This document shows positions 42,301-63,385 of a stretch of 64,000 nucleotides of DNA, piece after piece. Location of the stretch: positions 1,550,001 through 1,614,000 of the forward strand of contig OY253670.1 of assembly GCA_958009085.1 (NCBI GenBank). Reading direction: 5' to 3'. The notes below the pieces were generated by a model, which saw only the letters and a list, made by a program, of their open reading frames with translations, was not told where the DNA came from and searched no databases. The translations under genes and the position numbers were made by a program. The stretch comes from Protoeuglena noctilucae (Eukaryota). Position 1 is the stretch's first letter. The number at the start of each line of letters is the position of its first letter.

Positions 42301-45278
42301 TTCAGGAGGACAATGTCGCCGTCTGCCACGGACGGGTAGGCCGTGCCCAGGGTCAGGTTCTGCGCAGTCGTGGCCCCGGAGGTGCCGAACGTCTTGGTGT
42401 AGTCTGACGAGGTGGTGGAGTTGGGGAGGTTGATCGTGTTGCCGCTCGTGCACGCGACGTTGATGGACGCACCCGCGTTGTCGCCGTTGAGCTTGATGGC
42501 GAACAGGTAGCCCGCGGTGGGCGTGAGGTACTCCTTGTCAAGGACCTTGACCGTGCTGGGCACGATGGTACCCGAGCTGAGGGAGCTCCCGTTCGTCAAG
42601 GCCGTGTTGGAGCCGGCCACGATGAGGATCTGCATGGGCTGGATGACGATGCTGACTGAGAAGCCGTCCGTGGTCGACAGGTGGTTGGCCGCCGTCGTGA
42701 CCTTGCACGTCAGCGTGACTGTCTTGGAGGTCGTGATGGAGCTCGGGGTGTTGAGGGTCACGTTGACCGGAGTCGTGTCCGTCACGGCAGCCGCCGTGGG
42801 GGTCGCGCTGAAGTCGTTGCTCCCCGACTCCGTGCAGGTGAACGCGTTGGCGCCACCCGAACTGCCGTTGAGCGCCACCTTCAGCACCGTGCCACCCGCA
42901 TCAGCCTGGCCCTCCACCACGACCACCTGGCCAAGGGAGTTGCTGCCGATGGTCGACACGAGGGCCTTGTTTGAGCCGAACGTCGTCAGGTTGCCCTTGC
43001 TGTCAACAGACTTGTAGGCGGCAGACTGGGCGTACACGATGAAGCCCAGCGGCTGGAGCGTGAGGTTCAGTTGGAAGCCGTCAGACGTGGTCAGGTGGTT
43101 CCCAGCTGTGGTGACCGTACATGTCAGAGTGATGCTGACGGGGGAGCTCAGGTCAGCCACCGTCTTCATGTCCATGTTGACCGAGGTCGCGTCGGTGACG
43201 TTCGAAACAGTCGGGATCGTGCTGCTGGCAAAGTTGGAGGCACTGGCCGTCTTGCATGTGAGGGCGTTGGCGCCACCCGATGCACCGTTCAGGGAGACCT
43301 TGAACGTATTGCCCGGAGTGTCGGCCTGGCCCTCGAGCAGGTACACCGTGTCATTGGAAGTCCCACTGATAACCGCGGTGATGGGCTGCCCAGAGCCGCC
43401 AAATGTGGTCAGCTCGTTCGTCGACGCCACGCTCTTGATCGCGGTCGACTGGGCCGTCACGATGAAGCCCAGCGGCTGCAGGACGATGTTCAGGCTGAAG
43501 CCGTCGCCCGTCGTCAGGTGGTTGCCTGCCTTGGCCACCGTGCACGTCAGCGTGATGGTCTTGGCCGTGGACAGGTCCGCGATGGTCTGCATGTTGATGG
43601 CCACGTTGGTCGTGGTCGACACGGGGGCCGCCACCGGCAGCAGGCTGTTGTAGAAGTCGGTCCCAGTGGTCGTTGTGCACGACAGGAGATTGGAGCCGCC
43701 CGAGTTGCCGTTCAGCTGCACCTGGAGGATGGAGCCTCCGGGGAAGTTGGCGACTGTGACGTTGCCGATGGGGCTGGAGAGCGCGGAGGCCAGGGCGGTC
43801 GCGTTGGTGGCCGCGCTCGTCGAGGTGACCGTGTTCACCAACGTGGTGGAGACATTGGCCGAGGTGGGGTACGTCACAGTGACCTTGTCGCCCACGACGA
43901 ACGTGCCACCGAGGTAGACTACGTCCACCTGAGAAATGCCGGTACCATTGGCGATCGGGGTGCCAGTGGCCTTGGAGCCCGTGCTGCCCGTCGACTGCGT
44001 CACAGTCACTGAGTAGGACGGGAGGGCCGTGCCAGCCGTGCCAGCTGTGATGGTGAAGGCATTTGCCGTGCTGGCCGACGCAGTCCCGTTCAGGGTCTTG
44101 GTCAGCGCTGTGGCGACTGCCGTTGCCGCAGCAGCAGTGGTGACGCTGGCGGTAGGCGTGTAGGCGACGGTGTAGAGTGTGGGGGTCCCAGTGGCCGTGC
44201 TCTTCACAGTGACGGTGATGCTATCGCCGCTTGCCCAGGTGCCACCGATGGTGAAAGGGCCGGTGCCCGAAACCGTGAAACCCGCGGTACCAGCGTTTGT
44301 GTTGGCAACCGCGACGCTGAGGCCCGTGCCCAACGTGATGGTGAGGACGCTGCTGGAGGCTGAAGCCGACCCTCCGCTGCCAAGGGGCGAGCTCATCGCT
44401 TTCAGGAGCCCAGCCGTGACGTTGGCCACGGTCGTCCCATCGACAGAGTTGACGGTGTACGTCGTCGCGACTGCTCCGTCCGTCACCTTGATGGTGTCGC
44501 CCGCCGCATACGTGCCGCCGACAGCGATTGCGTCGACCTGGGCCACACCCGTACCACTCGCCACCAGGTTCTTGAACGCTGCCTGCCCGCTGGTGGAGGT
44601 CGGGGCGACAGAGTAGGTGTCAATCGCCGTCCCCGCCGTGGTGGCAGTGAGCACAATGACGTTGTTGGTGGCGATGGTGGCGCCGCCCAGCGGCGAGGTC
44701 AGAGCAGCCTTGAGACCCGCGCCCACGTTGGCGGCCGTCGTCCCGTCCCCGGAATTGACCTTGTACGTGACGGTGGTCGCGACGCTGGAGCTCGGATCAA
44801 CCTCCACGGCAATCTGGTCCGGGGTGGTGGTGGCCCAAGTGCCACCCACGACCACGACGTCCTGCTGGGCCACCGTGGCGCTGGCCGCGTTGACCGTCTG
44901 ACCGACGGCCATGCCAGCCGACGACGTGGGCGTCACCTTGGTCGTGAACGACGTATTCACCGCCTTGGCCGACAATGTGATGATGGTGGTGTCCGCCGTG
45001 CCAGAGTCAGTCTGACCCTCCAGCAGGTACACCGTGCCGTTGCTCGAGCCGCCCTGCACCGCCGTCAGCGTCTGGGCGGAGTTAAACGTGGTGAGCGCGT
45101 TCGTCGACGCCACGCTCTTGATCGCGGTCGACTGGGCCGTCACGATGAAGCCCAGCGGCTGCAGGACGATGTTCAGGCTGAAGCCGTCGCCCGTCGTCAG
45201 GTGGTTGCCTGCCTTGGCCACCGTGCACGTCAGCGTGATGGTCTTGGCCGTGGACAGGTCCGCGATGGTCTGCATGTT
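36323..45278 (-). CDS. 3' part of a giant Thr/Ser/Ala-rich repetitive cell-surface protein, likely GPI-anchored; interrupted by the PLV
   Basis: One ~8.5-kb open exon of repeated ~120-aa Cys-paired beta-rich modules (..C.SS..VL....TVTYTC.P..) ending in an RRALL motif. One GT-AG intron at 36659-36764. The last exon has a P/S/T stalk and a hydrophobic tail (SALLAASMLLAALL). Confidence 0.85.
43414..45278. repeat. 1683-bp (561-aa) intragenic tandem repeat of the surface-protein gene
   Basis: 43414-43595 matches 45097-45278, and 43592-43901 matches 63691-64000 on the far side of the insertion. Confidence 0.9.
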
Positions 45279-45582
45279 AGCTAGCTATAACCGACGCCTG
45301 GAACGGCGCGGAGCGACGACGGCGGTCCGACGGTTGGATTCTTTACTAAGGATTACTGATGCCAGTAATGGCACGCGCACGGCGGCGCCAGCGTTGACTT
45401 TGGCGTGTCCAGCGTTGACCGTACGCGCCTCATAAAAAATTATTCCAACAGCCGCGCGGCCGTAGGGGCTATGCCCTACGCCCTACGCCTCATGCGACGC
45501 CTGGAAGCGAGCCCCCGAGCCCCCATGTCCCAGGGGCCTTCACAAAAAAATTTCCAAATAGGGCGACAGCAAGGTGCGCCGC
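45279..45582 (+). repeat. Left terminal inverted repeat (304 bp)
   Basis: Begins AGCTAGCTATAACCGACGCCTGG. Reverse complement of 63386-63690, with one indel and one substitution seen near the inner end. Confidence 0.95.
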
Positions 45583-45630
45583 TGCCGCTGCCGCTGCCCA
45601 AACGACAAATGTACCCCTAACATGGGGGGT

Positions 45631-45858
45631 TCAAGGGGGTGGCCGAAGGCCGATGGGCTCCGCCCCCGCCCCCTGCCCCTTCCGTCTCGCCAAAGCGCGA
45701 GCCCGAAACTCAGGGTCTTCCGCGTACTTGCGTCTCATGTACTCCAATTTTTTCTCCCGATTCTTTTGATACGCTTCTCTTTTCTGCTGGAGTATACGTT
45801 CCTTGTTAGCTTCATAGTAAATCTTGAAGCGGTTAGCCGTAGCCGCAGAGTCTTCCAT
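45631..45858 (-). CDS. Small basic protein (YYEANKERIL motif), paralog of 63174-63377
   Basis: 75-aa Lys/Arg-rich helical ORF with an AT-rich leader. Confidence 0.7.
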   Translation of the reverse strand: MEDSAATANRFKIYYEANKERILQQKREAYQKNREKKLEYMRRKYAEDPEFRARALARRKGQGAGAEPIGLRPPP

Positions 45859-45878
45859 ATTATAGTTGACGAAAATCT

Positions 45879-46808
45879 TTACGCTTCCACCACGAGGTCT
45901 CTCTTGACAGTCTTGCGCCGTTTCGTTGTCGTTTTAATGAGCTCGTAGCTGCTGGGCAACACTCTAACAATCTCAAAGATGGCCTTGGATACGTGTTCCG
46001 CGCGCGACTTTTTGAGTCTCGGGTTTGTATCTATCACACGCACTCGGTCTCCCACATTAAAGAGCGCCCTGGCATTTGTCTCTCGTTTGAAATTCTGGTT
46101 CAGTTTGTTTTGGAGGTATGTGATTTGATGGTAGTCCGTTGGACTTATCTCGTGGTCATCGACAAGCTTCATGATGTCATCCGGTTTCATTCCGGTTTGT
46201 TTCGAAACAGTGTCGTTATGCGCATTGGCCACTGCTGTCAATTTTTGCCAATACGTCATGTCATCTGGTAGTCTCGTGATACCTTCCCGTAATGTTCGAA
46301 TCATTCGTTCGGCTGTCGGAGCATGCTCTACGAACTGTTGCTGAACCCCTTGCTCCAGGAGCCATGTCACGGTGTCCTTGGAATCTCCCACAGTCCACGC
46401 GGAGTCGCGGTCACACACGATGGTCATCGGCTTAGGGCGTTGACGAGGCAACATGCTTAACAGTCCCTTTTTTACAGAATCTTTTGTTTTATTTTTCAGG
46501 GGATACAGGTAGACATATTTAGAAAACACGTCGACCAAAACGAGGATATACTTCACGTCTTTCGTCTGATTCGGTTTCTCAATGTGCATGATGTCAAGCA
46601 TGGCTACTGCCCACGGGGACGTAGTCATGAAGTGGCCCCCTTTCGGTTTCTCGTCTCGGGGCTTCATGACCATCCTGCGAACGTTCTTTTGCCCGAGAAG
46701 GAATTCCTTTTCTTGCGACTTGCTGTATCCTTTCGAACGAACTTTGGCATACAACTTATCGATAGATGTGTATCCCTGCTTAAAAAATGTATTGAACAGC
46801 TCCTCCAT
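45879..46808 (-). CDS. Retroviral-like (rve, DDE) integrase
   Basis: AMLDIMH..KYILVLVDVFSKYVYLYPLKNKT, IVCDRDS, TAERMIRTLRE and HNDTVSKQTGMKP. The C-terminus is SH3-like (FNVGDRVRV). Confidence 0.93.
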   Translation of the reverse strand: MEELFNTFFKQGYTSIDKLYAKVRSKGYSKSQEKEFLLGQKNVRRMVMKPRDEKPKGGHFMTTSPWAVAMLDIMHIEKPNQTKDVKYILVLVDVFSKYVYLYPLKNKTKDSVKKGLLSMLPRQRPKPMTIVCDRDSAWTVGDSKDTVTWLLEQGVQQQFVEHAPTAERMIRTLREGITRLPDDMTYWQKLTAVANAHNDTVSKQTGMKPDDIMKLVDDHEISPTDYHQITYLQNKLNQNFKRETNARALFNVGDRVRVIDTNPRLKKSRAEHVSKAIFEIVRVLPSSYELIKTTTKRRKTVKRDLVVEA

Positions 46809-46861
46809 ATATGAGCTTTAAAAAACCTCAACCAAAAATGAGGCCGAAGGCCTCTCGGGGT

Positions 46862-49800
46862 TTAAGGGGACTTCGTCCCCTTCCTGTTGCAAGCCAGGCA
46901 GGCAATCCCACAGTTTTCTTTCGTGTGACCGAGGTCGTCATCTGTGCGGTCCAGAGTCCATGTCCCCTCCTGATAAAAGTCAGCACCGCAATGCCTGCAC
47001 CGGAATTTGTCAGCTTTCAAGAGAGCCCAGATATCCTCGGACGTGATTGTGGTCTCTTGGTCACGCGTCCTGTCCTGTCGCGTGTACCCCACAACCTTGT
47101 CCCGAATGTATGCTTTCAAGTTCAAGAGAACAGAGCTGATACCCTGAACGAGATAGACTTTATCGAAGTCCCTCGCTCGTGTGATGGCCATGTACAATTC
47201 TTCACATCCGACGAACGTGGTGCTCACACCATGGACATATAAGTTTCCGCTCGTACGAGACCCCTGACAGCTGTGAATGGTTACCATATTGGACGACTCA
47301 AAGTTCTTGTGGAACTGGTCTACTTTAATTTTCTGAATCACACCGTCTTGTCCTTGCAGTTCCACATGGGACCCGTCATTAGACACCATCAAGTACTCTG
47401 CATTCCTAACGAATTTCCCAGAAGACCTCCCAGAACTCGGTCGATAGGTCCAAGTGTCTGGAGCAGCTATGTTCGTCCCCAACGATTGAATGCACTTGAA
47501 CGGACATAGATGTAGTCCATCACGTGCGAGTGCCTCGTCCTCGGACAACAAGCGCTTCTGTGTCATAAACCACTGAATGCACGCTCTCTTGTCCTTGCGC
47601 TCTACAAGCATCTCTCGTAGCTCTTTGAGTAATGGCTTCTGTGATTCCGGTAGGGTTTTATTTTCATGCAGGTATACCCTATTTTTGAAAACGCTCTGCA
47701 TGAGCATCCCGACTGCATCTCGGGAATATCGGGTGTCCTGGACCGGCTTCAGCTGGTCGATATCGCCGGTCATGATTAGGGTGTAGTCCCGGTTCACCGC
47801 CTCCGTGGCCATTTCTCTTAATGCCGAGGTACAGAACAGAAACGCTTCCTCGAGGATAACCATATTTGCGTCAGGAGGTACGTTGCGAGTAGCTTTGCGG
47901 TTGATGACCGGGAGCTCCCACCACTTGTGCGAGGTCGTGAAGTGGACGTCTATAGAATCGTCTTCGAAATATCGCTGACAGTCCAGCTTGTTCTTGTTGT
48001 TGGGGCAAACAACCACGATGCGCTTCTCTTGACAGTACTTCTTGACGTAATCGACCCAGAGCCGTGTCTTTCCGCTGCCGGCGTAGTGCGCTTGGATGCT
48101 CAGCCTATTATGTGATTTCAGTATTTCGTGGATTTGTCCCGTCATAAGTTCCGTGTCGTACTCTTGTTCCTTGGTGAACTCATGGGTGATCCATTTGTTC
48201 TTTTCCTTGAATTCTGGAAGATTCGGAGGACTTAGGTCCATAGGATTCGCTTTGATTTTTCCTCGCTCTGGCAGCTTGTATGAGCCCAGTTTTCCGTCAT
48301 ACTTGATGTTTGGACGTTCACGGAAATACACAGCATCTGTCTTGATGGCCACTGGCTTGTATCTCAGATTTTTGTGCATGAACGTAGCGACATTTTCAGC
48401 GGCAAGCTCCTGAAGGACTGCCCAAACGCTGTGCTTCCATCCGTTGAGGCAAACCTTACGGTCCTCGTCATACACGATATTCAGGTCAGGGTCTCCTGAC
48501 AATTTGAGTCTTGGGTTATCCTCGATTACCTTGTATGCGCTCATGGGGTCTTTGAACAAAACACCTCGCTGCGCCCTTGTCCTCGACCTTCCAGCCATAC
48601 CAATAGCCATGTTGACGATTTTTTTCACGTCTTTTAATTTCAGGGTCGTATCCTGGAGTGCATCTTTGTATAACCAGTCGATGACTGCGGCGACTCCCTG
48701 AATGCGCGCTGTATACGCCGTCTTGAGTTCTCCGACGATTCTGATGGGGGGCCGTAGGCCGGTTGGACGTTCGTCCTCCCTGTCGAATAATTTAGCCATC
48801 CTCTTGAGTACACTGCCGAGACATAGCGATAGTTCCTTTCGGTAATACACTTGCTCCGAGAACCAGAATAACTGAGTCTTGTCCAACTTGACGACGTACC
48901 AAGCAAGGTCATCCGCATCTTCTACGCGCATGTCGACGCTATAGAAGTGGTCGCTCGAGCATGGTACAGGAATTTCCATGCCTTCCATTGACTTTAGAAT
49001 ATATGTGTAGTGCTTGCTAGCGTCGCATTCCCAGAAATCACCGTCGATTCCATCACGGAGGGATTCTGAACTACCCTCCCCCATACATCGTTTGATACCG
49101 AACTTTCGGAGGCGGTCAAACACGTCGAATACGTCTTGGTTAACCTCGCATCTTGTCGTGGAACAGAGTAGTCGTTTGAGGAGTTTGTCCTGGGCGTTTT
49201 TGTAGTCGATTTCATGCTCAAGACTGTACCTCGGTTCGGTAATCTCGTCGCACTCGACCATGGACTTCACTACTATCTTTTTGTTGTCTACGTGATGGAA
49301 CATGAATTGGTTGACTTGTCCATTCTGTAGTATAAGGGTAAACGGGACGGCAAATGGAACCACGTTTTTAAGCGCTCCGATTACGTCGTGGGTATAATAG
49401 GTACCAGGTTCGATGCTGTTCAGTTCCTGGAGACTTTCAACATATTTCCAGGGAATCACTTCCTTAATTTTCGTGGGAGCCCACTCGATTTTCTCAGGTG
49501 CTTTCGCTGCAGGGAAGTCGATTTCTGGGGCGAGGAAGTCTTCGATAGTCTTCGCGTGCACATTCTCTGTAGCCCGCTTCGTGTGCCACGCGGGACATAT
49601 GTGGCCGTCATGGACGATAAAAGTCAAGCGTCTAATTTCCTTGTTCTCCCGCTCTGCTTTGAGTTTGAGTACAACGCGACCAAAGATATTGAAAACCACC
49701 ACATTAAATCTCTTGGCCAGCAATTGACACCCCTCGAGCAATCTAACAGGCCCATCCGGGAAATTCTCACTCACCCACTTAAGGTGGCAGGTGATGTTTT

Positions 49801-50383
49801 GTTTTGCCTTTTTTGAACCAGAATTCTCAATCGCACGTAGAATCTGATTTTGAACCGAAGACTTGAAACAGCTTCCTTCCTTGAGGTCGAATACGTTGTC
49901 AGAGTCCTTGAATCCCAGGGGGTTCACGTGGTTAATAAATACGCTCTTGTCCCTGGACACCGCCTGCTCGAACCATAGCTTATAGTCGCGTTCATGTGGG
50001 TTCACCTTATAGACAGAAACAACGTCGATGAATACCATTCCTCCGCTGGTTGCAATGCTGCTTAAATTCTCAAAGAGGTCTGGATTTGATTTCTCGATGA
50101 GGTTTCTAAACCTCTTAGCTGATTCAGTTTTCGCATTGTTGAACTCGAATTTCTCTATTTTGGGAGCAGGGTCTTTAACAAACATCCGGTAAGGCGTCTC
50201 GTTCATTTGAATGAACCAGCCTTTGAAATGTCCAAATCCACGCCGAATCGTGTTATTTTGCAAGTGCTGTTCAAAGTACTCGAGAACGTTATGGCCTCGC
50301 TTGTTCTTCGTGTCGATGTGATGACGCATCTTCTTGACAGTAGCTCGTAGCTCATCGTAAGTTCTTACCTCTTTTCCGGCCAC
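46862..50383 (-). CDS. Replication polyprotein: divergent family-B DNA polymerase fused to SF1 helicase and C-terminal HNH/Zn domain
   Basis: PolB-like motifs A (CDASKHY), B (KKIVNMAIGMAG) and C (IKTDAVY). Helicase motifs AGSGKT, VILEEAF, GDIDQLKPV, TIHSCQGS and YMAITRAR. C-terminus CRHC..TLDRTDDDLGHTKENCGIACLACN. Confidence 0.85.
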   Translation of the reverse strand: MAGKEVRTYDELRATVKKMRHHIDTKNKRGHNVLEYFEQHLQNNTIRRGFGHFKGWFIQMNETPYRMFVKDPAPKIEKFEFNNAKTESAKRFRNLIEKSNPDLFENLSSIATSGGMVFIDVVSVYKVNPHERDYKLWFEQAVSRDKSVFINHVNPLGFKDSDNVFDLKEGSCFKSSVQNQILRAIENSGSKKAKQNITCHLKWVSENFPDGPVRLLEGCQLLAKRFNVVVFNIFGRVVLKLKAERENKEIRRLTFIVHDGHICPAWHTKRATENVHAKTIEDFLAPEIDFPAAKAPEKIEWAPTKIKEVIPWKYVESLQELNSIEPGTYYTHDVIGALKNVVPFAVPFTLILQNGQVNQFMFHHVDNKKIVVKSMVECDEITEPRYSLEHEIDYKNAQDKLLKRLLCSTTRCEVNQDVFDVFDRLRKFGIKRCMGEGSSESLRDGIDGDFWECDASKHYTYILKSMEGMEIPVPCSSDHFYSVDMRVEDADDLAWYVVKLDKTQLFWFSEQVYYRKELSLCLGSVLKRMAKLFDREDERPTGLRPPIRIVGELKTAYTARIQGVAAVIDWLYKDALQDTTLKLKDVKKIVNMAIGMAGRSRTRAQRGVLFKDPMSAYKVIEDNPRLKLSGDPDLNIVYDEDRKVCLNGWKHSVWAVLQELAAENVATFMHKNLRYKPVAIKTDAVYFRERPNIKYDGKLGSYKLPERGKIKANPMDLSPPNLPEFKEKNKWITHEFTKEQEYDTELMTGQIHEILKSHNRLSIQAHYAGSGKTRLWVDYVKKYCQEKRIVVVCPNNKNKLDCQRYFEDDSIDVHFTTSHKWWELPVINRKATRNVPPDANMVILEEAFLFCTSALREMATEAVNRDYTLIMTGDIDQLKPVQDTRYSRDAVGMLMQSVFKNRVYLHENKTLPESQKPLLKELREMLVERKDKRACIQWFMTQKRLLSEDEALARDGLHLCPFKCIQSLGTNIAAPDTWTYRPSSGRSSGKFVRNAEYLMVSNDGSHVELQGQDGVIQKIKVDQFHKNFESSNMVTIHSCQGSRTSGNLYVHGVSTTFVGCEELYMAITRARDFDKVYLVQGISSVLLNLKAYIRDKVVGYTRQDRTRDQETTITSEDIWALLKADKFRCRHCGADFYQEGTWTLDRTDDDLGHTKENCGIACLACNRKGTKSP

Positions 50384-50567
50384 TTTCTCGAGGACATCGA
50401 AGTCAGTCTCGTCGTGCTCGGATATCCAAATATTTTATGCCGTATCGTAAATGGTTCGTTTGCGCTGCTTTTCGTTCTTGCGTTGTCTACGTGCGTGTTT
50501 TTGTTGAGCAATTCTCTCAGCTCGCGCGACTTGCTGGCGGATGGTACGGGCTTTGGGCATACCATGT

Positions 50568-50593
50568 TGGAGAAAAATCTTTACGGCGTTTTT
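50568..50593 (-). promoter_or_regulatory. Second start-proximal motif AAAAACRCYGTAAAGMTTTT (putative viral promoter)
   Basis: It recurs before ATGs at 62409 and 62912, and the core recurs before 45858. Confidence 0.6.
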
Positions 50594-50648
50594 GGCCGCG
50601 CCTGGAACCGATGGGGCCTTCGCCCCGTATTTTTTCCAAAGTTTTCGT

Positions 50649-50960
50649 ATGGAGCTGAAGATAACCAAAGCGACCGCAAAAGGAAAGAAGTATCGAGCTG
50701 AATTCCTGAGAGCTGGAGACCATCGGCCTATGGCCACCGTCAACTTTGGGGCAGAAAATTATCAGGACTATACCCAACACCATGACACTAAGCGTCGCGA
50801 GGCGTATCGCGCGAGACATAAAAATGACCGAATTGATGACCCCATGACTCCAGGAGCTTTGTCGTGGTACATACTTTGGGGTGATTCGACGAGCATGGAA
50901 AAGAATGCCAAAGCCTTTGCCAAGAAATTTAATTTAAAGCTAATGCCTCTTGGGTTTTGA
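50649..50960 (+). CDS. Tlr6F-like conserved PLV/virophage protein
   Basis: KKYRA..VNFGAENYQDYTQHHDTKRREAYRARH..TPGALSWYILWG pattern. Confidence 0.8.
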   Translation: MELKITKATAKGKKYRAEFLRAGDHRPMATVNFGAENYQDYTQHHDTKRREAYRARHKNDRIDDPMTPGALSWYILWGDSTSMEKNAKAFAKKFNLKLMPLGF

Positions 50961-51131
50961 CTCCTTAGCAAGAACGGTGTTTACATAAAACTGTGCCTTC
51001 CGTTTCATGATGTCCCCGTATGTCGAGTTTTTCGCCAGTACGGCCTTCGCAAACTTCTTGAGGTCCGCTTCGCCATCCTTCTTTTTAAACCCGTATTTTT
51101 TCGCAGCAGCAGTAAACGTGCCTTCCTTCAT
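50940..51131 (-). CDS. Small basic hypothetical viral protein
   Basis: MKEGTFTAAAKK..LKKFAKAVL..KRKAQFYVN. It is preceded by the TTTTCAAAAGTTATAC-ATG motif shared with other viral genes. Confidence 0.65.
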   Translation of the reverse strand: MKEGTFTAAAKKYGFKKKDGEADLKKFAKAVLAKNSTYGDIMKRKAQFYVNTVLAKESKPKRH

Positions 51132-51220
51132 GTATAACTTTTGAAAACGAATGTCGCCGTAGGCGCCTGCAGGGGTTAAAGGGGGCAGCGGCGGAGCCGC
51201 GACGCACGTAGTGCTGCCCC

Positions 51221-54200
51221 CTAATTGATGAAGTCTGTGCTCATGAGAACGCACCCGATGTGGATGGTGTCTATCTGATACCCAGAATTGCTATTCACAA
51301 TGCTAATATAAGGGGGATTGCCTGACCCGTCGGGACTGATAAGCTTCACATCCTGTGGCCAACTAATGTTGCCCGATGTGAATATCTGATACACCCACTT
51401 AGCGATAACGCTTGGCCCGCTGTTGGGGAAACTGAGCGATGGACTTGAGCTATATTGTAGGTACGTGAGTAGACTGATATACAGGTAATCATTGAGTTGA
51501 TTTCTGACATAAACAGTATTGTTATCTGGGGAAATCTTCACGATTCCTTCACACATATAAATATTACCCACGGCGTCTTGACCAGAGCCATACGCGTATA
51601 TCTTCCATATGCCCGCTGACAAGTTGCTCAAGTCGTTGACAGGGAAGCTGACATAATTGCCGTTCACCGGCACATCCAGTCTGTAATACTTATTCTTCAG
51701 CAGTCCTTGGAGAATGTTGAGGTACTTCACGTTAAGCTGGGTACACCTGAATGTCCCCTCACAAGCAGCTGCGAGTCCTACAGACGAGGTATTAAAAACG
51801 CTCAGTTTCGAAGTAAAATTCCCAGCTGAGTCTTTGACACCGAGGTTTACCTGTGCCGGTCCATACGTACTCGAACAGTCAATATTAAGCTGCCCTCCTA
51901 CTGTCTGGTCAATCCCATACGAGTCTCCAGCAGCATATGTCTTGACTAACATGGCTGGGTTATTTGCAGTGTACGTGATTGGCGTGGCTGTTGTGAAGTT
52001 TCCGTTAACCGTCAAGGCTTGGGTAGTCGTACTCGAGTTGCATGTGACCGTGCTGTCAAAGTTGACACTTCCGTTAAATATTAGAGACCCAGACAGCGTA
52101 GCATTAGAATTGACATTTAGGAACCCGCCGTTAGACAACGAAGTGGACAAGGCATTAATTTGCGCTTGAACGTCTGATGTAAGTCCTTGACAATAAACGA
52201 TATAGCTTGGCAAATTGCTTATGTCCGTCCAGGGGAGCGTTCCCGACAAACTCCCGGACACTGTCAGTCCACCTGTAATCGTACAGCCTCCCGCATTTAC
52301 CCCTAAGATTTCCGTGCCATTGTTTTGGAAACTCGCTATCTGTGCCCCACCGTTCGTATTATTCGCCGTGAAAACCCTGGCTGTAGAACTTGCCGTGACA
52401 CCCGTGGCGGCGTCCGAGCGCATGAACTGGCTCGCGTTGAGGCCCTGTAGCGTACTCGCGTCGCCGACGGATGTGACCGTTTGGGTCGTGGTTGTATTGT
52501 ACACGATGTTATTGACGAGGTCAACGGTACTGAAGTCAGGGGTCCAAGCGTCATTGACATAGTAGTACTGAACCACATTGAGCCCTGTTGTCGGAGTGGG
52601 GATGGTTCGGACATTGTTCCCCGAATTGTTCTGCTCGGTGATTTCGTATACAAGGTTCGGCTGGAGAATCAAAGTCTTCTGGAGATAATTTCCCGTACTT
52701 GGATTCGGTAGCGGCAGCGTGGCCTGCATGGCCTGGTTATTGTACCCCCATGTGACCAAATACGGTTGAGTCGTGTTCGTTGTCCAAGCATCTGGGTCTG
52801 TCGTTAATCCTACGGAGTAATTCCCGTTTCCGTCCGAAATGAGTACACTCGACTGGTCAGTGGTCAGAAAACCGCTGAAGTATAGGTACCCGTTTTTAGC
52901 ACGCATGCTGTAGTCTGAGATAGTTAAGTGGCCAGTGTTGACGCTGAACGGAATCATTGTATATTGCCACTTTCCCGTGGAAGTGTTCAAGATAAATAAA
53001 GGGTTTTCTGTTCTTGTAGTTCCGAGTGTAGGATTCGTCACGAGGGACGTTGTCCCGTCCATATTGTGCATGGCACTGCCCGTCACAGCTGTACCGGTAG
53101 AGTAAATATCGAGATACATCAGACTGTTTTTGGAATCGTACCACATGCGCCTATTGGCTGCGCCATAAAACGTCGTTTGGAGACCGTAAGCATTGAACGC
53201 AGACACGAACTTAAGCACGGTTCCAGTAGGCGTTATATTTAAGATGTATCCAGAATACGTGTAATTATTCGTAGCTGTGACGCCATTGACAGTAAGGCTT
53301 GAGTTCGTGCTTTGAAAACATACCCATAGATTCGTCCCATCGCTTTCGAGTTGAGGGAAATCGGTCCCGCCTACATTCACCTGGACTAAAGTCCGGACGA
53401 AGTTGCCAGCCGCGTCGTACATTAGAACCACGTTGTCATTCCCATTGAGTGTGATAGAGTTCCCAGAGCTTGCGTTCGTCGAAAGGTTATTAATCGTCAA
53501 TGTCACCGGTGAAGTACTAAGAGCCACCCACATGCCGATGTATAAATTATTCGAACTGTCCACCGCATAGCCTCCGAGGTACAGATTTTGACTGGTAGAA
53601 GTCAAGGCTATGGGATTGGCCATAACTTTAGTCCCACCAGTCTCATTGACTGCTATAATCGCCGTGTTGTATCCACCTCCAGCCGGCAGATACAGCTGGT
53701 TTGGGGAGGAGGAATTTCCTTGACTGGAACATATGGTGGTAATTCCCACCAGTGCGTTGCTACCCCATAACATTTGTGCCGATTTGTACCAGTATTGAGA
53801 ACTCGTACCTCCCGTAGTGTATACAGTATTATATGAAAGTAAAGCGCCAGTTGTAGGGTCATGGACGGTATACATGGTGAAATCTAAGTACGTTGTATAT
53901 TGGTTCGAAGCCACCAATGTAGTCCCGTTATAGATATTAACACCAGCGTTTGCCTGAATGTAGAAGAAGGCCATGATGTTGCCGCTCGGCATAACCACGA
54001 GCCCGTCGAACTCGATAGCAGTAGTAGTCGGGGATTGAACAGGCGCACAAGCCCATCGGAATTGTCCTGTAGCTGTGTAGCTGACAATGTAAGCCGTTCC
54101 ATACGTGTTATTGATGTTTGACAGCCGGAAGCTCGTCTGTGTTCCATCGAGATTCGTGATATACGTGTTAGGCGTGTTCTTGTTGTTGAAGTTCATATTC

Positions 54201-54595
54201 GCGTATATGTTGAGACTCGAGTCCGTGTCGATGTACGCCAGGCCTCCATGAGTTTGATCGGTGACGGGATTGGGCGCTGTCTGACATATCCCGTAAAGAT
54301 TTGGTTTGAACCCTACTGGTTGAGTAATTCCAGGGGCGAAGTAGGTGTCTTGTGTCAAACTTAACGTGGCGTTGTTTGTCGTAATCGTTTCTACGTCCAA
54401 ACTTTGGACACCTGATAGAATCGTTCCAGTTGATAAATGTCGGATACTCGGAGCAGTTCCGTTGTCCGTATATGCCTGGGAACTCGGAAGCCATCTGTCA
54501 TACGCACTGTCGTGTACCAACACGTCTCCATTGGAAGCGTTTGGGGTCGAAAGTTCTTCTTGAAATGTCCGGTACCATGAACCGTTCCAACTCAT
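51221..54595 (-). CDS. Large fibre/receptor-binding-like virion protein
   Basis: About 1120 aa, rich in T/N/S/G. Propeller-like repeats (IDTDSSLNIY, AVDSSNNLYIG, SDGTNLWV) and a tail-fibre-like motif GDASTLQGLNASQFMRSD. Confidence 0.7.
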   Translation of the reverse strand: MSWNGSWYRTFQEELSTPNASNGDVLVHDSAYDRWLPSSQAYTDNGTAPSIRHLSTGTILSGVQSLDVETITTNNATLSLTQDTYFAPGITQPVGFKPNLYGICQTAPNPVTDQTHGGLAYIDTDSSLNIYANMNFNNKNTPNTYITNLDGTQTSFRLSNINNTYGTAYIVSYTATGQFRWACAPVQSPTTTAIEFDGLVVMPSGNIMAFFYIQANAGVNIYNGTTLVASNQYTTYLDFTMYTVHDPTTGALLSYNTVYTTGGTSSQYWYKSAQMLWGSNALVGITTICSSQGNSSSPNQLYLPAGGGYNTAIIAVNETGGTKVMANPIALTSTSQNLYLGGYAVDSSNNLYIGMWVALSTSPVTLTINNLSTNASSGNSITLNGNDNVVLMYDAAGNFVRTLVQVNVGGTDFPQLESDGTNLWVCFQSTNSSLTVNGVTATNNYTYSGYILNITPTGTVLKFVSAFNAYGLQTTFYGAANRRMWYDSKNSLMYLDIYSTGTAVTGSAMHNMDGTTSLVTNPTLGTTRTENPLFILNTSTGKWQYTMIPFSVNTGHLTISDYSMRAKNGYLYFSGFLTTDQSSVLISDGNGNYSVGLTTDPDAWTTNTTQPYLVTWGYNNQAMQATLPLPNPSTGNYLQKTLILQPNLVYEITEQNNSGNNVRTIPTPTTGLNVVQYYYVNDAWTPDFSTVDLVNNIVYNTTTTQTVTSVGDASTLQGLNASQFMRSDAATGVTASSTARVFTANNTNGGAQIASFQNNGTEILGVNAGGCTITGGLTVSGSLSGTLPWTDISNLPSYIVYCQGLTSDVQAQINALSTSLSNGGFLNVNSNATLSGSLIFNGSVNFDSTVTCNSSTTTQALTVNGNFTTATPITYTANNPAMLVKTYAAGDSYGIDQTVGGQLNIDCSSTYGPAQVNLGVKDSAGNFTSKLSVFNTSSVGLAAACEGTFRCTQLNVKYLNILQGLLKNKYYRLDVPVNGNYVSFPVNDLSNLSAGIWKIYAYGSGQDAVGNIYMCEGIVKISPDNNTVYVRNQLNDYLYISLLTYLQYSSSPSLSFPNSGPSVIAKWVYQIFTSGNISWPQDVKLISPDGSGNPPYISIVNSNSGYQIDTIHIGCVLMSTDFIN

Positions 54596-54682
54596 ACATG
54601 AGCTTAGAAAACACTTCATGAAAGAGCCACCCGGAGGGGCGTCCCCCTCGTCGCAAGCTCTTCCATGAATTTTTAAAGCTGT

Positions 54683-55093
54683 ATGAGTATGGAATCAGTT
54701 GCACAGACACCGACCATTGACCGCCACCACCACACGTACCGCGTCGTGGTCAGGTTCCCAGCAAACACCAACACCGCGACCGTACACTTTCGACCCATCA
54801 ACCGGTCTGCTCCGAGCAACACCCCCTGGGCCGTCATCGTGGAAGAAACACCCGGCCTCCCCACCGACTGCTTTGTGTCTTGCTCTGATATAGTGCAGTA
54901 CCATACGATAGATTCCGCCACGGACCAACCCACGCAGGTCATCGGAAGCTTTAAGAATCAACCTGGAAACCCCATCCCTATCAACCCAGTAAGCGACACG
55001 TATATGACGTTTAACCTGACCACCGTTGATACTGGAGTAGCGTACACTACGTCCCACTCGGGCTGCGCTGTAGTGCTTCGATTCTTGTCTTAG
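54683..55093 (+). CDS. Hypothetical beta-rich viral protein (possibly penton-like)
   Basis: 136-aa ORF with beta-strand periodicity. Confidence 0.6.
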   Translation: MSMESVAQTPTIDRHHHTYRVVVRFPANTNTATVHFRPINRSAPSNTPWAVIVEETPGLPTDCFVSCSDIVQYHTIDSATDQPTQVIGSFKNQPGNPIPINPVSDTYMTFNLTTVDTGVAYTTSHSGCAVVLRFLS

Positions 55094-55143
55094 GGGGCAG
55101 CGGCCCGTCGCGCCTGCGGCGCTTTTTTTTTGGAAGCTATTGT

Positions 55144-55608
55144 ATGATTAGCCTCAAGAATCCCGACGCCGCCGAGGGGCACAACCAAGACGTAGAACCA
55201 CCGAGCAGCGGCGGAGCCGCGACGCACGTAGTGCTGCCCACAAAGGACGATACTGCGGCCGCAGGGGGGTCCAAGGGGGCCCCTTACCATAGACTTGCTA
55301 ACTTGCAGAAAGCAAGAGAGGCAGTCGCGCTCAGGAAGCAGGCGAAGCAGGAGGAGCAGTCTCGTCTTCAGTCCCTTAAGGAGCGTGAAAAAACACTCAA
55401 GGACCTTGAATATCAAGTGAAAGAGCAAGAACTTGCTACCCGCGAAAAGGAATTGCTCGCGAAACTGAATACTCTCAACGCTTATGATTCCCACGTAGTT
55501 CAGAGAGCCGACCCTTTGATTCACGATAGACGCGTGAATGAAGTGAAACGCGAGATTGAGACCGCTCGGAAGACTAATAACGTACGGGGGCTAATTTCCT
55601 ATTTCTAA
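55144..55608 (+). CDS. Coiled-coil hypothetical viral protein
   Basis: LANLQKAREAVALRKQAKQEEQ.. heptad-like pattern. The N-terminus includes hairpin-derived sequence. Confidence 0.7.
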   Translation: MISLKNPDAAEGHNQDVEPPSSGGAATHVVLPTKDDTAAAGGSKGAPYHRLANLQKAREAVALRKQAKQEEQSRLQSLKEREKTLKDLEYQVKEQELATREKELLAKLNTLNAYDSHVVQRADPLIHDRRVNEVKREIETARKTNNVRGLISYF

Positions 55609-56523
55609 TTTCCGATTTCCGAATTCGAACCCTTTGTTCAGGTTTATCCTGAATCTCGTGTCTTCTGGTTCATGAAGTAGTCCAACAAAGCAGTTATGAA
55701 TATTATTCGACACTGCTTCGACCCACATTTTTTCGAATTCCGTCGGCGTCACGGCGTGTCCGCACAGAGTCTCCGAGAGGTCTTTTCTGATTTTCGGATA
55801 ACTGCACCTGAAAAGAGCGAACATATTCACCATGGCGCGCAACGAAGGTGGAATCGTCTGTGTCCAGGATTGGCTCGAAACAAACACACTGCATCTTCTG
55901 TGCCGGAGCGTCGTAATAAAGCGATTGAACCCGTGATTCATGTGCGTGCTGTACACTTCCGAATTGCCAAGCATATCGTCACACACGAGGCAAAATGTCG
56001 GTTTTCCCAAGGGGTATTTTTCAGGAGGCAGAAATTCGAATCTTTCGAGAAGCAGGATTTCATCCGGTTCGAACCTTCCCTGCAAATCGGTATATTTATA
56101 TCCGGATTCCTTTAAGACCTTCATGTATCGTTTCCAAACGCTGATATATTTCTGAGTCAGCTGCCAGTCTTCCAGTTTGGTGTCTATAAACGTCTCGATA
56201 TCGTGCAGGGGGAAATCTGTGCTATAAAAGACATCTTGCAGGTATCCGTCTTCCAACGCTTTTGACAGCACGTGCTTGACCTTAGCGTCTCGCGTCGACG
56301 TGCTACTGCACCAAAACACGTAGTCATACGTGCGGGTCCTGAAGTATTTGTCGAGATAATTTAACAAGAACGTTGTTTTCCCGGTGCCTATCGAACCAAC
56401 GATGTACCCGAATTGGAACTGATTCCCGACACCAACAGCAGGGAGTCCTTTAGGCGCTTTCCGGGGGTTTTCTACGTCATCAGGTATCATTCGAATTTCC
56501 AAGTCACCAGCTATGTCTCTCAT
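55591..56523 (-). CDS. A32-like (FtsK/HerA) genome packaging ATPase
   Basis: Walker A GSIGTGKTT, Walker B LVCDDM, LRHRRCSVFVSSQ and IPPSLRAMVN. Confidence 0.92.
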   Translation of the reverse strand: MRDIAGDLEIRMIPDDVENPRKAPKGLPAVGVGNQFQFGYIVGSIGTGKTTFLLNYLDKYFRTRTYDYVFWCSSTSTRDAKVKHVLSKALEDGYLQDVFYSTDFPLHDIETFIDTKLEDWQLTQKYISVWKRYMKVLKESGYKYTDLQGRFEPDEILLLERFEFLPPEKYPLGKPTFCLVCDDMLGNSEVYSTHMNHGFNRFITTLRHRRCSVFVSSQSWTQTIPPSLRAMVNMFALFRCSYPKIRKDLSETLCGHAVTPTEFEKMWVEAVSNNIHNCFVGLLHEPEDTRFRINLNKGFEFGNRKLEIGN

Positions 56524-56632
56524 AACCTTTTTACAAAAAAGGTTGACCAAAAATGGGGGGACTGCGTCCCCATCGGGCTATGCCCTACACCCCCGCGGCG
56601 CTATGTTTTGTTAACTTTTTCAAAAGTTATAT

Positions 56633-56851
56633 ATGATACTCGAGGACCTCGTGGACGCCATCGTTAACAAGTACAGCAACTTAGATCACCTCATTGCAAC
56701 CGCTCTTGTACGCCAATGGGCCCGAGACGCTAATGTAGAGCTTGTTTCAAAGTTCAAAGTGCCGGAAGTTCAGGGTGATGACGAAGTTAGTGTTAGGGAG
56801 CAACAGAGTTCCGTCACTATCAGTGAGGTAGATACCGATGCAGTTGAGTGA
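56633..56851 (+). CDS. Small hypothetical viral protein
   Basis: 72-aa ORF directly after the TAACTTTTTCAAAAGTTA motif. It overlaps the 3' end of the penton gene on the opposite strand. Confidence 0.55.
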   Translation: MILEDLVDAIVNKYSNLDHLIATALVRQWARDANVELVSKFKVPEVQGDDEVSVREQQSSVTISEVDTDAVE

Positions 56852-57454
56852 ATTCGTTTCTTCATCGACAATCAGATGTGCGTCATCTTGCCTTCCATTG
56901 AAAACTATACCCTGACTATTTTTATCAGCCGAGATTGGTATCTCGGTTAACACGTCCCCTCTATCAACCCCTCCCATAGCGATAGAGGAATAACTTCTCC
57001 TAACGAAATTTGCATGAACCAGAATACTGGTCGTCCAGTTCAATAAAGGTGCCTTCTGTGCCTCTATAATAGTGCCCGCGGGTATCGTCAATTGTGTCGA
57101 GACCCCCAGCAACGGACTTGCAGATATGACTACACTCGAAAGCAGTGACGTATTTCTGAAAGACAGTCGATTACTTGCCGTGTTGTATTCGCAAAACAAA
57201 TAGGATAATGTGTTATTAGATATCCATGTCGCAAGGTCTTGACACGTAGCCTGGGTCATGTCAGGCACCGCATAAGTGACACCTTGAACTATGATGCTCT
57301 GAGGAAGTACATTTTTGCTGAAATCAATCTCGTTCATCGCGAAGGCCGCGCACCAACCTATCAAAGTCTTGGACTTGGTGAATTTCGGAACACTCCAAGT
57401 GTAATACCCTCCCGTGACAGTCGCGTCTTCCGAGCGCAGTCTGAGTCGCCACAT
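56747..57454 (-). CDS. Minor capsid protein (penton, single jelly roll)
   Basis: L.LRSED start, YNTASNRLSF, SILVHANFV, VLTEIPIS and IGIYLTDSDGTLL..FVITLNF, a pattern typical of PLV pentons. Located next to the ATPase. Confidence 0.78.
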   Translation of the reverse strand: MWRLRLRSEDATVTGGYYTWSVPKFTKSKTLIGWCAAFAMNEIDFSKNVLPQSIIVQGVTYAVPDMTQATCQDLATWISNNTLSYLFCEYNTASNRLSFRNTSLLSSVVISASPLLGVSTQLTIPAGTIIEAQKAPLLNWTTSILVHANFVRRSYSSIAMGGVDRGDVLTEIPISADKNSQGIVFNGRQDDAHLIVDEETNSLNCIGIYLTDSDGTLLLPNTNFVITLNFRHFEL

Positions 57455-57470
57455 ACAAATCTTTAGAAAG

Positions 57471-57501
57471 TTTTGTTAACTTTTTCAAAAGTTATATATA
57501 T
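57471..57501 (+). promoter_or_regulatory. Palindromic AT-rich start-proximal motif TAACTTTTTCAAAAGTTA (putative viral promoter)
   Basis: The same motif precedes ATGs at 56633, 57502 and 61085, with variants before 51131 and 56523. Confidence 0.65.
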
Positions 57502-59208
57502 ATGCCTCCCCAAGAAATACGCGTAAGTGCACAAAGCAACCTACAACCGTTTGACAGAGAAGACCTCGTGGAGCTATGGAATGATTTTGAAAAATCAAAC
57601 CCTGCGCTCATGAAGGCATTAAAAAATGCTTATCCAGGCAATGATAAATTTTGGACGAAGGGCGAGTGGCCAAGGGATAAGATGTACGCCCTTGTAGACA
57701 TTTTCAAGAGCATCGATTTAACCATAGGTCCAGACACAGACGCAAATTTCAACGTGTTGAAGAATCGGATTTATGACCTGCGGACATCAGCGTATTGTAA
57801 AAAAAATTCCAAAAAAATAGCTACAGAAAACAAACAGGTAACTTATACACGTCCTTTCAAAGGTGGTAATAGGTTTGTCGGTTACTGTATGCCGAAGGCT
57901 ACTGAAGGATTAGACGATGCAAGACAACAATTTGACGATTTTAGAAGACAACTTATTAACGAAGCCGTCGCAACCCCATTAGATATTGGGACTGCATCCG
58001 AGACTCAGATTGACCAAACACAAGCACAAGGGTCCACGTCGTATGCCGAAGGCGCTGGTAGCGCCGCCGGCGCTGGTACCGGTAGCGCCGAAGGTGCTGG
58101 GGGTGCCGGCGAAGTGGACTTAACAGACGACGACCGAAACGATATAGCTGCTTTCAACGTCAAGCTCAAGCAGTCAAATCCGGCGCTTTTCGATGAATTC
58201 GACGCCGACCGTAAAAGCCGAACGCGAGAAGACGACCCCTATCCTTGGATTCGGCTGATAAAAACTCTGCCCCCCAATGACCCCCTTTTAAAACCAGCTA
58301 CAACCATCTTGAATCGGCTGATGGGGTTGACCGTATCTGCACAAAATTCAAACACGATTACATCCACCGTTGAGATGATGTATAAGCGTCCATTCAGTCA
58401 GACGAGTCATCCAGTCGTTTACTTTGGGAAAACGAATGATATCTTTGATAAAAAGATGAACGATTTTAAGGTTCAGTTAGACAAAGAACAACATTACCCG
58501 CCTCAATCCAGAGCAGACCAATCGCCTGATTTGAAAGAGGGAGACACCCAGCCCAAGAAGGAAGACATCGACGCTTATAACGCGTTCATTCAACGGCTCG
58601 GAAACATCGACAGTGTCGTTTTGGCTCAGTTCACGTATGACATAAATAACAATATCGCATACGTAGCGCCTTGGCTCAAGTTGTCCAGGACTTTCAAGAA
58701 GTATCCTCAGTTTAACGATCTACAAGGATTTTTGACCGTACTAATGACACGCATGAAGCAATTGACCGCATCTAAACAGTTCTTCGATGAGGGGGTTAAG
58801 AACCTCATCGGGTACTCGACGACATACCCGATAGCTGGAGGGAATCTATCAGGTTATTACTATTGCAAGGACGGAAACCCAGAACTCATGGATGCAAAGA
58901 TAAGCAATATCACGCTTAATGCGACACTGCAACTCTCTGGAATCTATCAAATAGGGGGCGGAGCCCCCTCAGACCCCCAAATGGGCCCATCAACTTCGGC
59001 CACATACCCCAACCAAGCAGGGGGGACGAACGGGGTTGGACAAACGGGGGGCAGCGGCGCAGCCCAGGGGGGGTTGGGGGGCGCAGCCCCCCTGTATAAC
59101 ATATCCGGACCAGACCCCATGGCTATGACCATCCCGCTACTCGGACGCCCCTTGAGGTGCACCCGTGGGCAAAATGCTTATATGTGCTATAAATATGATG
59201 GGTCTTGA
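57502..59208 (+). CDS. Hypothetical viral protein with three diverged internal repeats
   Basis: 568 aa with three ~120-aa units separated by low-complexity linkers. Confidence 0.8.
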   Translation: MPPQEIRVSAQSNLQPFDREDLVELWNDFEKSNPALMKALKNAYPGNDKFWTKGEWPRDKMYALVDIFKSIDLTIGPDTDANFNVLKNRIYDLRTSAYCKKNSKKIATENKQVTYTRPFKGGNRFVGYCMPKATEGLDDARQQFDDFRRQLINEAVATPLDIGTASETQIDQTQAQGSTSYAEGAGSAAGAGTGSAEGAGGAGEVDLTDDDRNDIAAFNVKLKQSNPALFDEFDADRKSRTREDDPYPWIRLIKTLPPNDPLLKPATTILNRLMGLTVSAQNSNTITSTVEMMYKRPFSQTSHPVVYFGKTNDIFDKKMNDFKVQLDKEQHYPPQSRADQSPDLKEGDTQPKKEDIDAYNAFIQRLGNIDSVVLAQFTYDINNNIAYVAPWLKLSRTFKKYPQFNDLQGFLTVLMTRMKQLTASKQFFDEGVKNLIGYSTTYPIAGGNLSGYYYCKDGNPELMDAKISNITLNATLQLSGIYQIGGGAPSDPQMGPSTSATYPNQAGGTNGVGQTGGSGAAQGGLGGAAPLYNISGPDPMAMTIPLLGRPLRCTRGQNAYMCYKYDGS

Positions 59209-59752: not shown

Positions 59753-59775
59753 AAATTTCTTTTGTTTCCTTAGAT

Positions 59776-60990: not shown

Positions 60991-61084
60991 GGGGTAGGGC
61001 GGAGCCCATAGGCCTTCGGCCACCCCCTTAAACCCCCTTGGGGCCTTCGGCCCCTTAGTTTGTTAACTTTTCTAAAGTTATTAT

Positions 61085-61429: not shown

Positions 61430-61525
61430 GAGGGGGCGTAGCCCCCTTAAACCCCCAATAGTGGTTTATTTTTGCCAGGCTCAAGACCGTCGCGGCTTCG
61501 CCGCTCTTTTTTCTGAAACACATAT

Positions 61526-62002: not shown

Positions 62003-62107
62003 ACGAAGCGTAAAAAAGCTGTCTCTGGAACTCCTTAGAGCCATCCCAGCTGTGCTTATATTCACGTTAATGCACATCCATTGAAACTATTTTTATCTAC
62101 CTATGAT

Positions 62108-62368: not shown

Positions 62369-62408
62369 TGGAGAAAAACACCGTAAAGCTTTTTTGTTAT
62401 GTATTATT

Positions 62409-63154: not shown

Positions 63155-63173
63155 CATTTTTATATCCTTTTTT

Positions 63174-63377: not shown

Positions 63378-63385
63378 TTTTGGGG

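Follow-up and report, generated by a model that had tools for sequence, protein, structure and literature searches.

The gene at 46862..50560 (minus strand) of a 64,000-nucleotide stretch of Protoeuglena noctilucae DNA (assembly GCA_958009085.1, contig OY253670.1, positions 1,550,001 to 1,614,000; this whole stretch is called the window below) very probably encodes a fusion replicase of the pPolB-S1H class, also known as 'Tlr1-like helicase', and belongs to an 18.4-kb polinton-like virus (PLV) integrated in a host gene that codes for a giant repeat protein. Replicases of this class join a family B DNA polymerase of the protein-primed kind (pPolB) to a superfamily 1 (SF1) helicase. Counting from the N-terminus, the predicted protein contains an N-terminal region (residues 1-165, 49889..50383, preceded by a 59-codon leader), an OTU-like cysteine protease domain (residues ~166-270, 49574..49888), a small alpha/beta module at the position of the exonuclease (residues ~296-395, 49199..49498), the palm and fingers of a family B polymerase (residues ~396-740, 48164..49198), an SF1 helicase (residues ~741-1085, 47129..48163) and an HNH, or endonuclease VII-like, domain (residues 1096-1168, 46880..47098), all on the minus strand. 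Residue numbers refer to the longest open frame of the gene (46862..50383, minus strand, 1173 codons), which holds every motif listed below; with the ATG at 50560 as the start, and an internal stop read as sense, the protein would comprise 1232 residues.

The phmmer search with residues 1-740 against 1,835,955,588 representative proteins gave four matches at E <= 1e-3, two of them near-identical fragments and two distant full-length proteins, P0004 (1242 residues, 1.2e-38) and P0005 (1179 residues, 3.3e-10), whose layout is the same from end to end. At 26-29% identity, the residues G170, C172, PDGP 209-212, H261, D454, K457, Y459, K587, N591, G595, G598 and K681-T682-D683 are invariant, and in the C-terminal part the three full-length homologues have in common the GSGK, EEA (E845-E846), QG-RT and RARD strings, H1153 and N1166. 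Judging from these alignments, the invariance of the motif residues is more than chance. An earlier note on this DNA, made from the letters and their open reading frames (ORFs) without database searches, had read the gene as a single replication polyprotein; the motifs that it listed are all present at the coordinates that it gave, including the codons of the proposed catalytic Cys (49868-49870) and His (49601-49603), which are exact.

Both motifs and predicted structure support the assignment of the central region to the protein-primed polymerases of family B. Its motifs occur in the same order as in phi29 DNA polymerase and include motif A, DASKHYTYI at residue 454 (D454, 49022-49024), motif B, KKIVNMAIG (K587-G595, 48599-48625), a motif 2b-like SVWAV at residue 652 and motif C, KTD at residues 681-683 (48335-48343), which reads KTDA in the window protein and KTDC in both distant relatives, the first Asp of the usual DTD being replaced. 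The relatives' strings DVNKLYSHV, KQVVNHAIG, TTWAT and KTDC parallel DVNSLYPAQ, KLMLNSLYG, TAWAR and DTDS of phi29 in identical order; the distance between motifs A and B is 133 residues in the window protein, 105-108 in the relatives and 134 in phi29, and that between motifs B and 2b is 65-66 in the window protein and its relatives versus 51 in phi29. After motif C just a GxYK/GEFK string is found, with no KxY motif and no thumb, and the helicase begins ~60 residues later.

AlphaFold modelling was carried out for residues 1-740 (mean predicted local distance difference test score, pLDDT, 43.9) and for residues 296-740 (mean pLDDT 46.1), using alignments of 4-5 sequences. In the Foldseek search of the 296-740 model against the PDB, all eight matches at E <= 1e-3 were chains of phi29 DNA polymerase (8.2e-8 to 4.5e-7, probability 1.0, 476-492 columns), which is both the best and the sole significant PDB match, and the weaker polymerase rows comprised the herpes simplex virus (HSV-1) polymerase, Tgo, E. 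coli Pol II, Pol zeta, RB69 and further members of family B. With the 1-740 model, phi29 occupied ranks 1-8 and 10 (E 2.9e-3 to 4.3e-2), and no PDB match reached E <= 1e-3; the families that recurred in the fold searches of this model were OTU, PolB and generic beta-alpha-beta modules, and no others. Among viral models (BFVD), the 1-740 model had six matches at E <= 1e-3, with an unnamed 999-residue protein at the top (3.8e-8, 732 columns); the two named matches are both DNA-directed DNA polymerases, one from a 'densovirus' record of the bidnavirus type (2.1e-4) and one from mavirus (5.9e-4). No mention of the UniProt identifiers of the unnamed matches was found in the literature searched. VIA-align, which is independent of Foldseek, placed Pol alpha (Z 5.8), phi29 (Z 5.4 over 258 residues) and the HSV polymerase (Z 5.4) among its top rows. 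The divergent PolB proposed from the bare sequence is supported by eight of eight significant Foldseek matches, all to phi29, obtained with a low-confidence model, and both catalytic Asp and the KTD for DTD that it described are present.

The other polymerase type considered was a 'TVpol' primase-polymerase, similar to family A, of the kind found in the PolA-helicase fusions of virophages and PLVs. Such fusions are common in these viruses (10.64898/2026.10.13.758929, PMC4642659; here and below, statements from the literature refer to the portions of the cited texts that were available), and the D-x-S and K..N..G strings can loosely be read as family A motifs. Family A is missing from the 50 rows listed in either PDB search, where phi29 and family B are present, although absence from such a list is not exclusion; the K-x3-N-x3-G spacing is that of KLMLNSLYG in phi29, and the fused helicase is of SF1 (AAA_30), whereas PolA fusions carry a superfamily 3 (SF3) or, rarely, a superfamily 2 helicase. 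The family A assignment, which was dropped after the fold searches had led to phi29 and family B, is very improbable.

Several results weigh against the identification of the gene as a pPolB-S1H replicase. The TM-scores of the 296-740 model to phi29 are just 0.25-0.28, with a root-mean-square deviation of ~18 A; in VIA-align, generic small modules tie with the polymerases, and Z-scores of 5-6 fall in the range that the tool calls common. The polymerase domain has no Pfam match at E <= 10, and Pfam OTU was not detected in the replicase at the same threshold; among PDB sequences, the polymerase and OTU regions had no match at E <= 1 when the protein was the query and no relevant one at E <= 10 when the profile was, and an hhalign comparison of the family profile with phi29 as a single sequence gave a probability of 0.08, with motif C alone aligned. 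The searches did not connect the protein directly by sequence with any named Tlr1-like helicase, the relatives found being the unnamed proteins P0001-P0005. Polymerase activity is not assured in a protein with motif C lacking its first Asp and with neither KxY nor thumb, and the in-frame TAA of the gene, described below, means that the window copy may be dead. Both AlphaFold models, built from so few sequences, are of low confidence (the regions corresponding to TPR1 and TPR2, the insertions by which protein-primed PolBs are diagnosed, are predicted as mixed strands and helices, and subdomain limits cannot be drawn from so poor a model); because both models are poor, the fold results are taken as support and not as proof.

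The scarcity of relatives is seen in the other searches as well. Word-index searches with the N-terminal 740 residues returned only the near-identical P0001 and P0002, and with the helicase part only P0002; among 50,697 phage records, tblastn with the N-terminal 740 residues found no match. Pattern scans of viral contigs produced 92 and then 146 matches, and a scan of metagenome contigs produced 384, with none confirmed in either case, but the patterns were family-specific, so these scans are no evidence of absence.

Between the OTU-like domain and the palm lies the small alpha/beta module. Residues 5-187 of the phi29 chain align with residues 306-385 of the window protein (Z 4.7), which does not surpass generic beta-alpha-beta-beta-beta modules (Z ~5 on residues 323-385). 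The earlier statement that no 3'-5' exonuclease motifs are recognisable holds: the motif scan of residues 271-450 found neither DxE nor Nx2[FY]D, and the order of the lone Yx3D match there, YYTHD at residue 329, does not suit ExoIII. In the GenBank record of phi29 DNA polymerase, the first 200 residues contain DFE, NLKFD and YIKND.

The OTU-like domain contains GSCFK at residue 170, with the Cys172 codon at 49868-49870, and DGHICP at residue 259, with the His261 codon at 49601-49603. In the 1-740 model, a helix (173-187) follows directly on Cys172, and the fourth strand of the domain (261-267) begins with His261. A wide fold search listed five OTU entries among 50 rows (Z 4.1-4.5, over residues 146/168-267/275), and a second-look search agrees; the best OTU row of Foldseek is 3tmp_G (DUBA; E 0.036, probability 0.87), and further weak rows include several nairovirus vOTUs, A20, OTUD2, OTUD3 and the protease of maize rayado fino virus. 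The OTU entries 4BOZ and 7MIC, which are among the matches obtained here, serve as comparators in the legend of Figure 5 of PMC11071308. The predicted structure of residues ~166-270 is consistent with an OTU fold, if weakly so: the invariance and placement of Cys172 and His261 would fit the protease proposed in the earlier note, and the fold matches themselves stay weak. In P0005, the corresponding domain carries, at residues ~255-300, a Cys- and His-rich insert of ~45 residues (CATC...CLTC), absent from the window protein and P0004, which may be a zinc ribbon. For residues 1-165, no specific fold match was found with the 1-740 model, in which pLDDT there is mostly <60 and in which alone, as the longer model, the region was folded; by position, it lies where PMC11071308 describes variable N-terminal domains equivalent to the terminal protein (TP).

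The C-terminal half of the protein is recognised by sequence profiles. Pfam AAA_30 matches residues 751-891 (4.2e-9, 36.9 bits versus a cutoff of 27), AAA_19 is also matched, and a PHROG of Dda-like helicases matches at 2.5e-5; the motif scan found Walker A GSGKT at residue 769 (48065-48079), VILEEA at residue 842 (47843-47860), where Walker B reads EE, HSCQG at residue 1037 (47261-47275) and TRAR at residue 1068. No S3H family was reported by Pfam at E <= 10 for the fused helicase. The proposed RecD/PIF1-like helicase with an EE Walker B is in this way placed in SF1. The nuclease-like tail, also foreseen, matches PHROG endonuclease VII at 4.8e-9 over residues 1096-1168, four HNH PHROGs follow at 0.0025-0.022, and Pfam HNH is found at 0.027 in one relative. 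The tail shows the CxxC...H...N...CxxC pattern (CRHC at 1129, LGHT at 1151 with His1153, CLAC at 1162, Asn1166), the first CxxC of which is missing from P0005.

This combination of domains has been published. PMC5499653 (Krupovic, Yutin and Koonin, 2016) reported that the large SF1 helicase proteins in PLVs, in Tlr1 and in transpovirons contain a protein-primed PolB domain with motifs 1, 2a, 2b and 3, with no exonuclease domain and no motif 4 according to the text available, and that PLV members carry a C-terminal HNH; the polymerase was argued to be inactivated. The 2024 preprint PMC11071308 added a vOTU with conserved Cys and His and a variable domain equivalent to the TP, and renamed the class pPolB-S1H; in its available text, phi29 is the only protein-primed PolB listed as solved. 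Proteins of this class are routinely annotated in PLVs (PMC9356565, PMC4642659, PMC12220804, 10.1101/2025.10.09.676808, 10.64898/2026.10.13.758929). The window protein agrees with the pPolB-S1H proteins of PLVs, Tetrahymena Tlr1 and mimivirus transpovirons in size (1000-1400 residues), in the order of an N-terminal region, a vOTU (putative in the window protein) with Cys and His, an exonuclease-less PolB palm with motifs 1, 2a, 2b and 3, an SF1 helicase and a C-terminal HNH, and in the loss of the first Asp of DTD together with the absence of motif 4. The C-terminal homing-endonuclease domain is an HNH in PLVs and in the window protein and a GIY-YIG in Tlr1, and Tlr1 (PMC11071308), like the window element, carries an rve integrase. 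At the sequence level, the window protein is very distant from the class, phmmer having given just two non-identical relatives, and it has a module of ~100 residues between the OTU-like domain and the palm, where PMC11071308 puts the vOTU beside the palm.

Other replicases are less similar in layout. The mavirus virophage pPolB (TP-vOTU-PALM), which retains just a remnant of the exonuclease (PMC11071308) and is the mavirus entry matched in BFVD, has no fused helicase, its S3H being a separate gene, unlike the SF1 fusion of the window protein. Phi29 DNA polymerase shares motifs A, B, 2b and C in the same order, but possesses a thumb, a KTY motif and an exonuclease domain that is active, and is without OTU, helicase and HNH domains. 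The PolA-S3H ('TVpol') and AEP-S3H replicases of virophages and PLVs have in common with it the design of an exonuclease-less polymerase fused to a helicase, and differ in the fold of the polymerase and in the helicase superfamily. The canonical polinton pPolB (TP-vOTU-EXO-PALM) is not matched, since the window protein is without Exo motifs and has a fused SF1 helicase. The protein is a very divergent addition to the published pPolB-S1H class, and the class itself was already known. The earlier note had ranked the gene as the most unusual system in the window, with the reservation that novelty would fall if a known PLV group had the same architecture; as the layout has been described for PLVs, Tlr1 and transpovirons (PMC5499653, PMC11071308), the novelty falls. 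Its parse, its mechanism (self-processing, protein priming and compensation by the helicase) and its remark on KTD instead of DTD coincide with what these two sources describe, and the interpretation as a whole is largely right and not new.

Within the class, the question is whether the polymerase works. In the original reading of 2016, the same architecture holds an inactivated polymerase as a scaffold, the helicase and perhaps the nuclease are functional, and DNA is synthesised by a polymerase that the host, or a giant virus infecting the same cell, supplies. The KTD in place of DTD, the lack of KxY and thumb with the helicase following so closely and the lack of exonuclease motifs all fit this reading, which was argued in PMC5499653 and is reflected in a 2025 preprint (10.1101/2025.10.09.676808), where a Tetraselmis protein is labelled 'S1H fused to an inactivated pDNAP'. 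The metal-binding D454 and D683 and the residues K587, N591 and G595, which bind the incoming deoxynucleoside triphosphate, are however invariant at 26-29% identity, which is unexpected of a dead site. According to PMC11071308, a polymerase can be active without the first Asp of DTD, and the same loss occurs in polymerases of mavirus, mitochondrial plasmids, pipolins and some archaea, described there as catalytically active. An inactivated scaffold is a possibility to be kept in view, though a doubtful one; given that neither the two catalytic Asp nor motif B varies at <30% identity, an active polymerase appears the likelier of the two states.

What the analysis itself shows is the order of the domains, the residues that are conserved and, by fold, the placement in family B. 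Taking the protein as a pPolB-S1H replicase, we infer its enzyme activities, protein priming and self-cleavage, and its operation may be pictured as follows. The element would enter the host gene by means of its own rve integrase, and the polymerase would start synthesis at the terminal repeats, probably primed by protein, as has been proposed for the class. The OTU domain would cut off the N-terminal part, where the basic leader and the N-terminal region would occupy the place at which relatives carry a TP-like domain. The short module may stand in the place of the lost 3'-5' exonuclease, and the fused helicase would unwind the parental duplex for a polymerase that has neither exonuclease nor thumb. 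The HNH domain may be either a remnant of a homing endonuclease or a nuclease that processes the ends.

The gene in the window is not a single uninterrupted frame, contrary to the earlier description of 46862..50560 as one ORF, in which an in-frame TAA (50435-50437, minus strand, codon 42) went unmentioned; all listed motifs of the replicase lie downstream of it, inside the 1173-codon frame. The relatives P0001 and P0003 have Tyr at this codon and open with the same basic leader (MPKA.../...PKAS...), their reading frame being uninterrupted through the stop position. On the strength of this shared leader and of the unbroken frame in both relatives, the true start is taken to be the ATG at 50560, and the upper bound given earlier thus proved correct. 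The TAA is kept in contigs of the sequencing runs X1, X6 and X9 (X1 is possibly the source of the window itself, and so not independent), and a Tyr codon is read in one contig of the metagenome run X3. In X1, X3 and X6, the gene is covered by numerous short contigs with 90-99% likeness to the window and abundant alternative letters; among the variants are a deletion of 1 nt (47239) and a skip of 16 nt (47367-47384). Such variation suggests that the gene belongs to a polymorphic family with multiple copies, both in the organism and in marine metagenomes.

There is about an even chance that the window locus is a pseudogene within a decaying endogenous element, from which nothing is made, a reading compatible with the assignment to pPolB-S1H. 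It is favoured by the TAA at a codon that is Tyr in P0001 and P0003 and by the recurrence of the TAA in contigs of X6 and of X1, subject to the reservation on X1 just given. The 1173 codons downstream nevertheless stay open, a restart at Met19 of this frame is possible, and the identity of the first 271 nt of the terminal repeats speaks for a young insertion. In addition, an RNA-library contig of X9 (185 nt, 0 differences) spans the stop site, although carry-over of DNA is not excluded; the contigs of this library cover 13 of 30 bins at a depth of <=5, which is no demonstration of transcription. Because of the TAA, the window copy is an improbable source of the full-length protein, and the protein at this locus is probably truncated or not made.

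The replicase gene lies in a low-GC element of the PLV type at 45279..63690 (18,412 bp), which is bounded by terminal inverted repeats of 280 nt at 45279..45558 (plus strand) and 63411..63690 (minus strand) that are 99% complementary. The first 271 nt of the repeats are identical, the four mismatches all lie within the innermost nine positions, and the repeat resumes past a 1-nt shift. GC content is 0.45-0.52 inside the element versus 0.62-0.71 in the flank, with the shift at ~46 kb. Read from the flanks, a 4-bp target-site duplication, TGTT (plus strand), stands at 45275..45278 on the left and 63691-63694 on the right; in minus-strand reading, the right flank joins the left flank as continuous coding sequence, and the empty-site 23-mer with one TGTT copy is intact at 43579-43601 (minus strand), where the same giant host ORF has a paralogous repeat. 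Because of the TGTT flanks, the coding continuity across them and the intact empty site, the element is a discrete, recent insertion that duplicated 4 bp of its target in a host gene, and the identity of the first 271 nt of its repeats makes it young. The interrupted host ORF (36702-45275 and 63691-64000, both minus strand) encodes a giant Thr/Ser/Ala-rich repeat protein, with 2857 codons downstream of the insertion.

The gene adjoining the replicase (45879..46808, minus strand) encodes the rve, or retrovirus-type, integrase (Pfam rve 1.5e-10, 41.6 bits versus a cutoff of 32.6). On the opposite strand, a DUF5754 protein (50541-50960, plus strand; Pfam 4e-16) overlaps the 5' end of the replicase gene. 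Further genes include a lipase-like ORF (59174-59752, plus strand) with GHSLGG and a fibre-like, Asn/Thr/Ser-rich ORF of 1132 residues (51221-54619, minus strand) without a family match. A PLV is expected to have terminal inverted repeats together with morphogenetic genes, among them those of a double jelly-roll capsid protein and of an FtsK/A32-type ATPase. Of these traits, the terminal repeats are present, as is the target-site duplication, the candidate A32-like ATPase has a weak match (Pox_A32 at 0.011) and a Walker A GTGKT, and the ORFs of 415 and 235 residues are candidate capsid proteins from reading of their sequences alone. Searches of PDB sequences with a 568-residue ORF and with the ATPase candidate gave no useful match. 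Within the 415-residue capsid-like ORF, an exact 39-nt tandem duplication (60120-60197) repeats 13 residues in frame.

A promoter-like motif, CGTAAAGATTTT, is located at 50574..50585 (minus strand), 14 nt upstream of the replicase ATG. The motif CGTAAAGNTTTT has three copies in the window where 0.01 are expected, and every copy lies 14-16 nt upstream of an ATG: at 45872-45883 (minus strand), 50574-50585 (minus strand) and 62382-62393 (plus strand), preceding a 75-residue ORF, the replicase and a 132-residue ORF, respectively, and these copies look like one promoter class. A second AT-rich motif, TCAAAAGTTATA, is also found three times versus 0.03 expected (51133-51144, minus strand; 56620-56631 and 57485-57496, plus strand); two copies immediately precede an ATG, that of the 568-residue ORF at 57502 and that of a short ORF with an MKEG start near 51131 (minus strand). 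It may represent a second, late-type promoter class of the kind that virophage-like elements share with a helper virus. GC-rich palindromic motifs of the GGGGG...CCCCC type are present at 46857-46881, 58953-58978, 61431-61456 and 63330-63355, and also at 45625-45672 / 60990-61037. They recur where genes end, one of them at the 3' end of the replicase gene, and contigs of other copies show similar loose ends at 46883; these palindromes could be terminator hairpins or small inserted repeats.

The window protein and its two distant relatives might form a deep, previously unsampled branch of pPolB-S1H, which we consider rather unlikely at present. Such a branch would still have a module at the exonuclease position and be accompanied by an rve integrase, and would be transitional between the polinton pPolB (TP-vOTU-EXO-PALM) and the fusion of PLVs and transpovirons (TP-vOTU-PALM-S1H); if this were true, the fully conserved catalytic residues would argue that an exonuclease-less and thumb-less polymerase is active. 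For the reading of genomes, it is of interest that inspection of the raw sequence without tools recovered a domain architecture that is published and not obvious. For the family, the invariance of the catalytic Asp and of motif B at <30% identity bears on the choice between the active polymerase of 2024 and the dead one of 2016, without answering it, and the gene adds to the pPolB-S1H class a very divergent lineage, whose element has clean boundaries, was integrated recently and has an empty site that is known.

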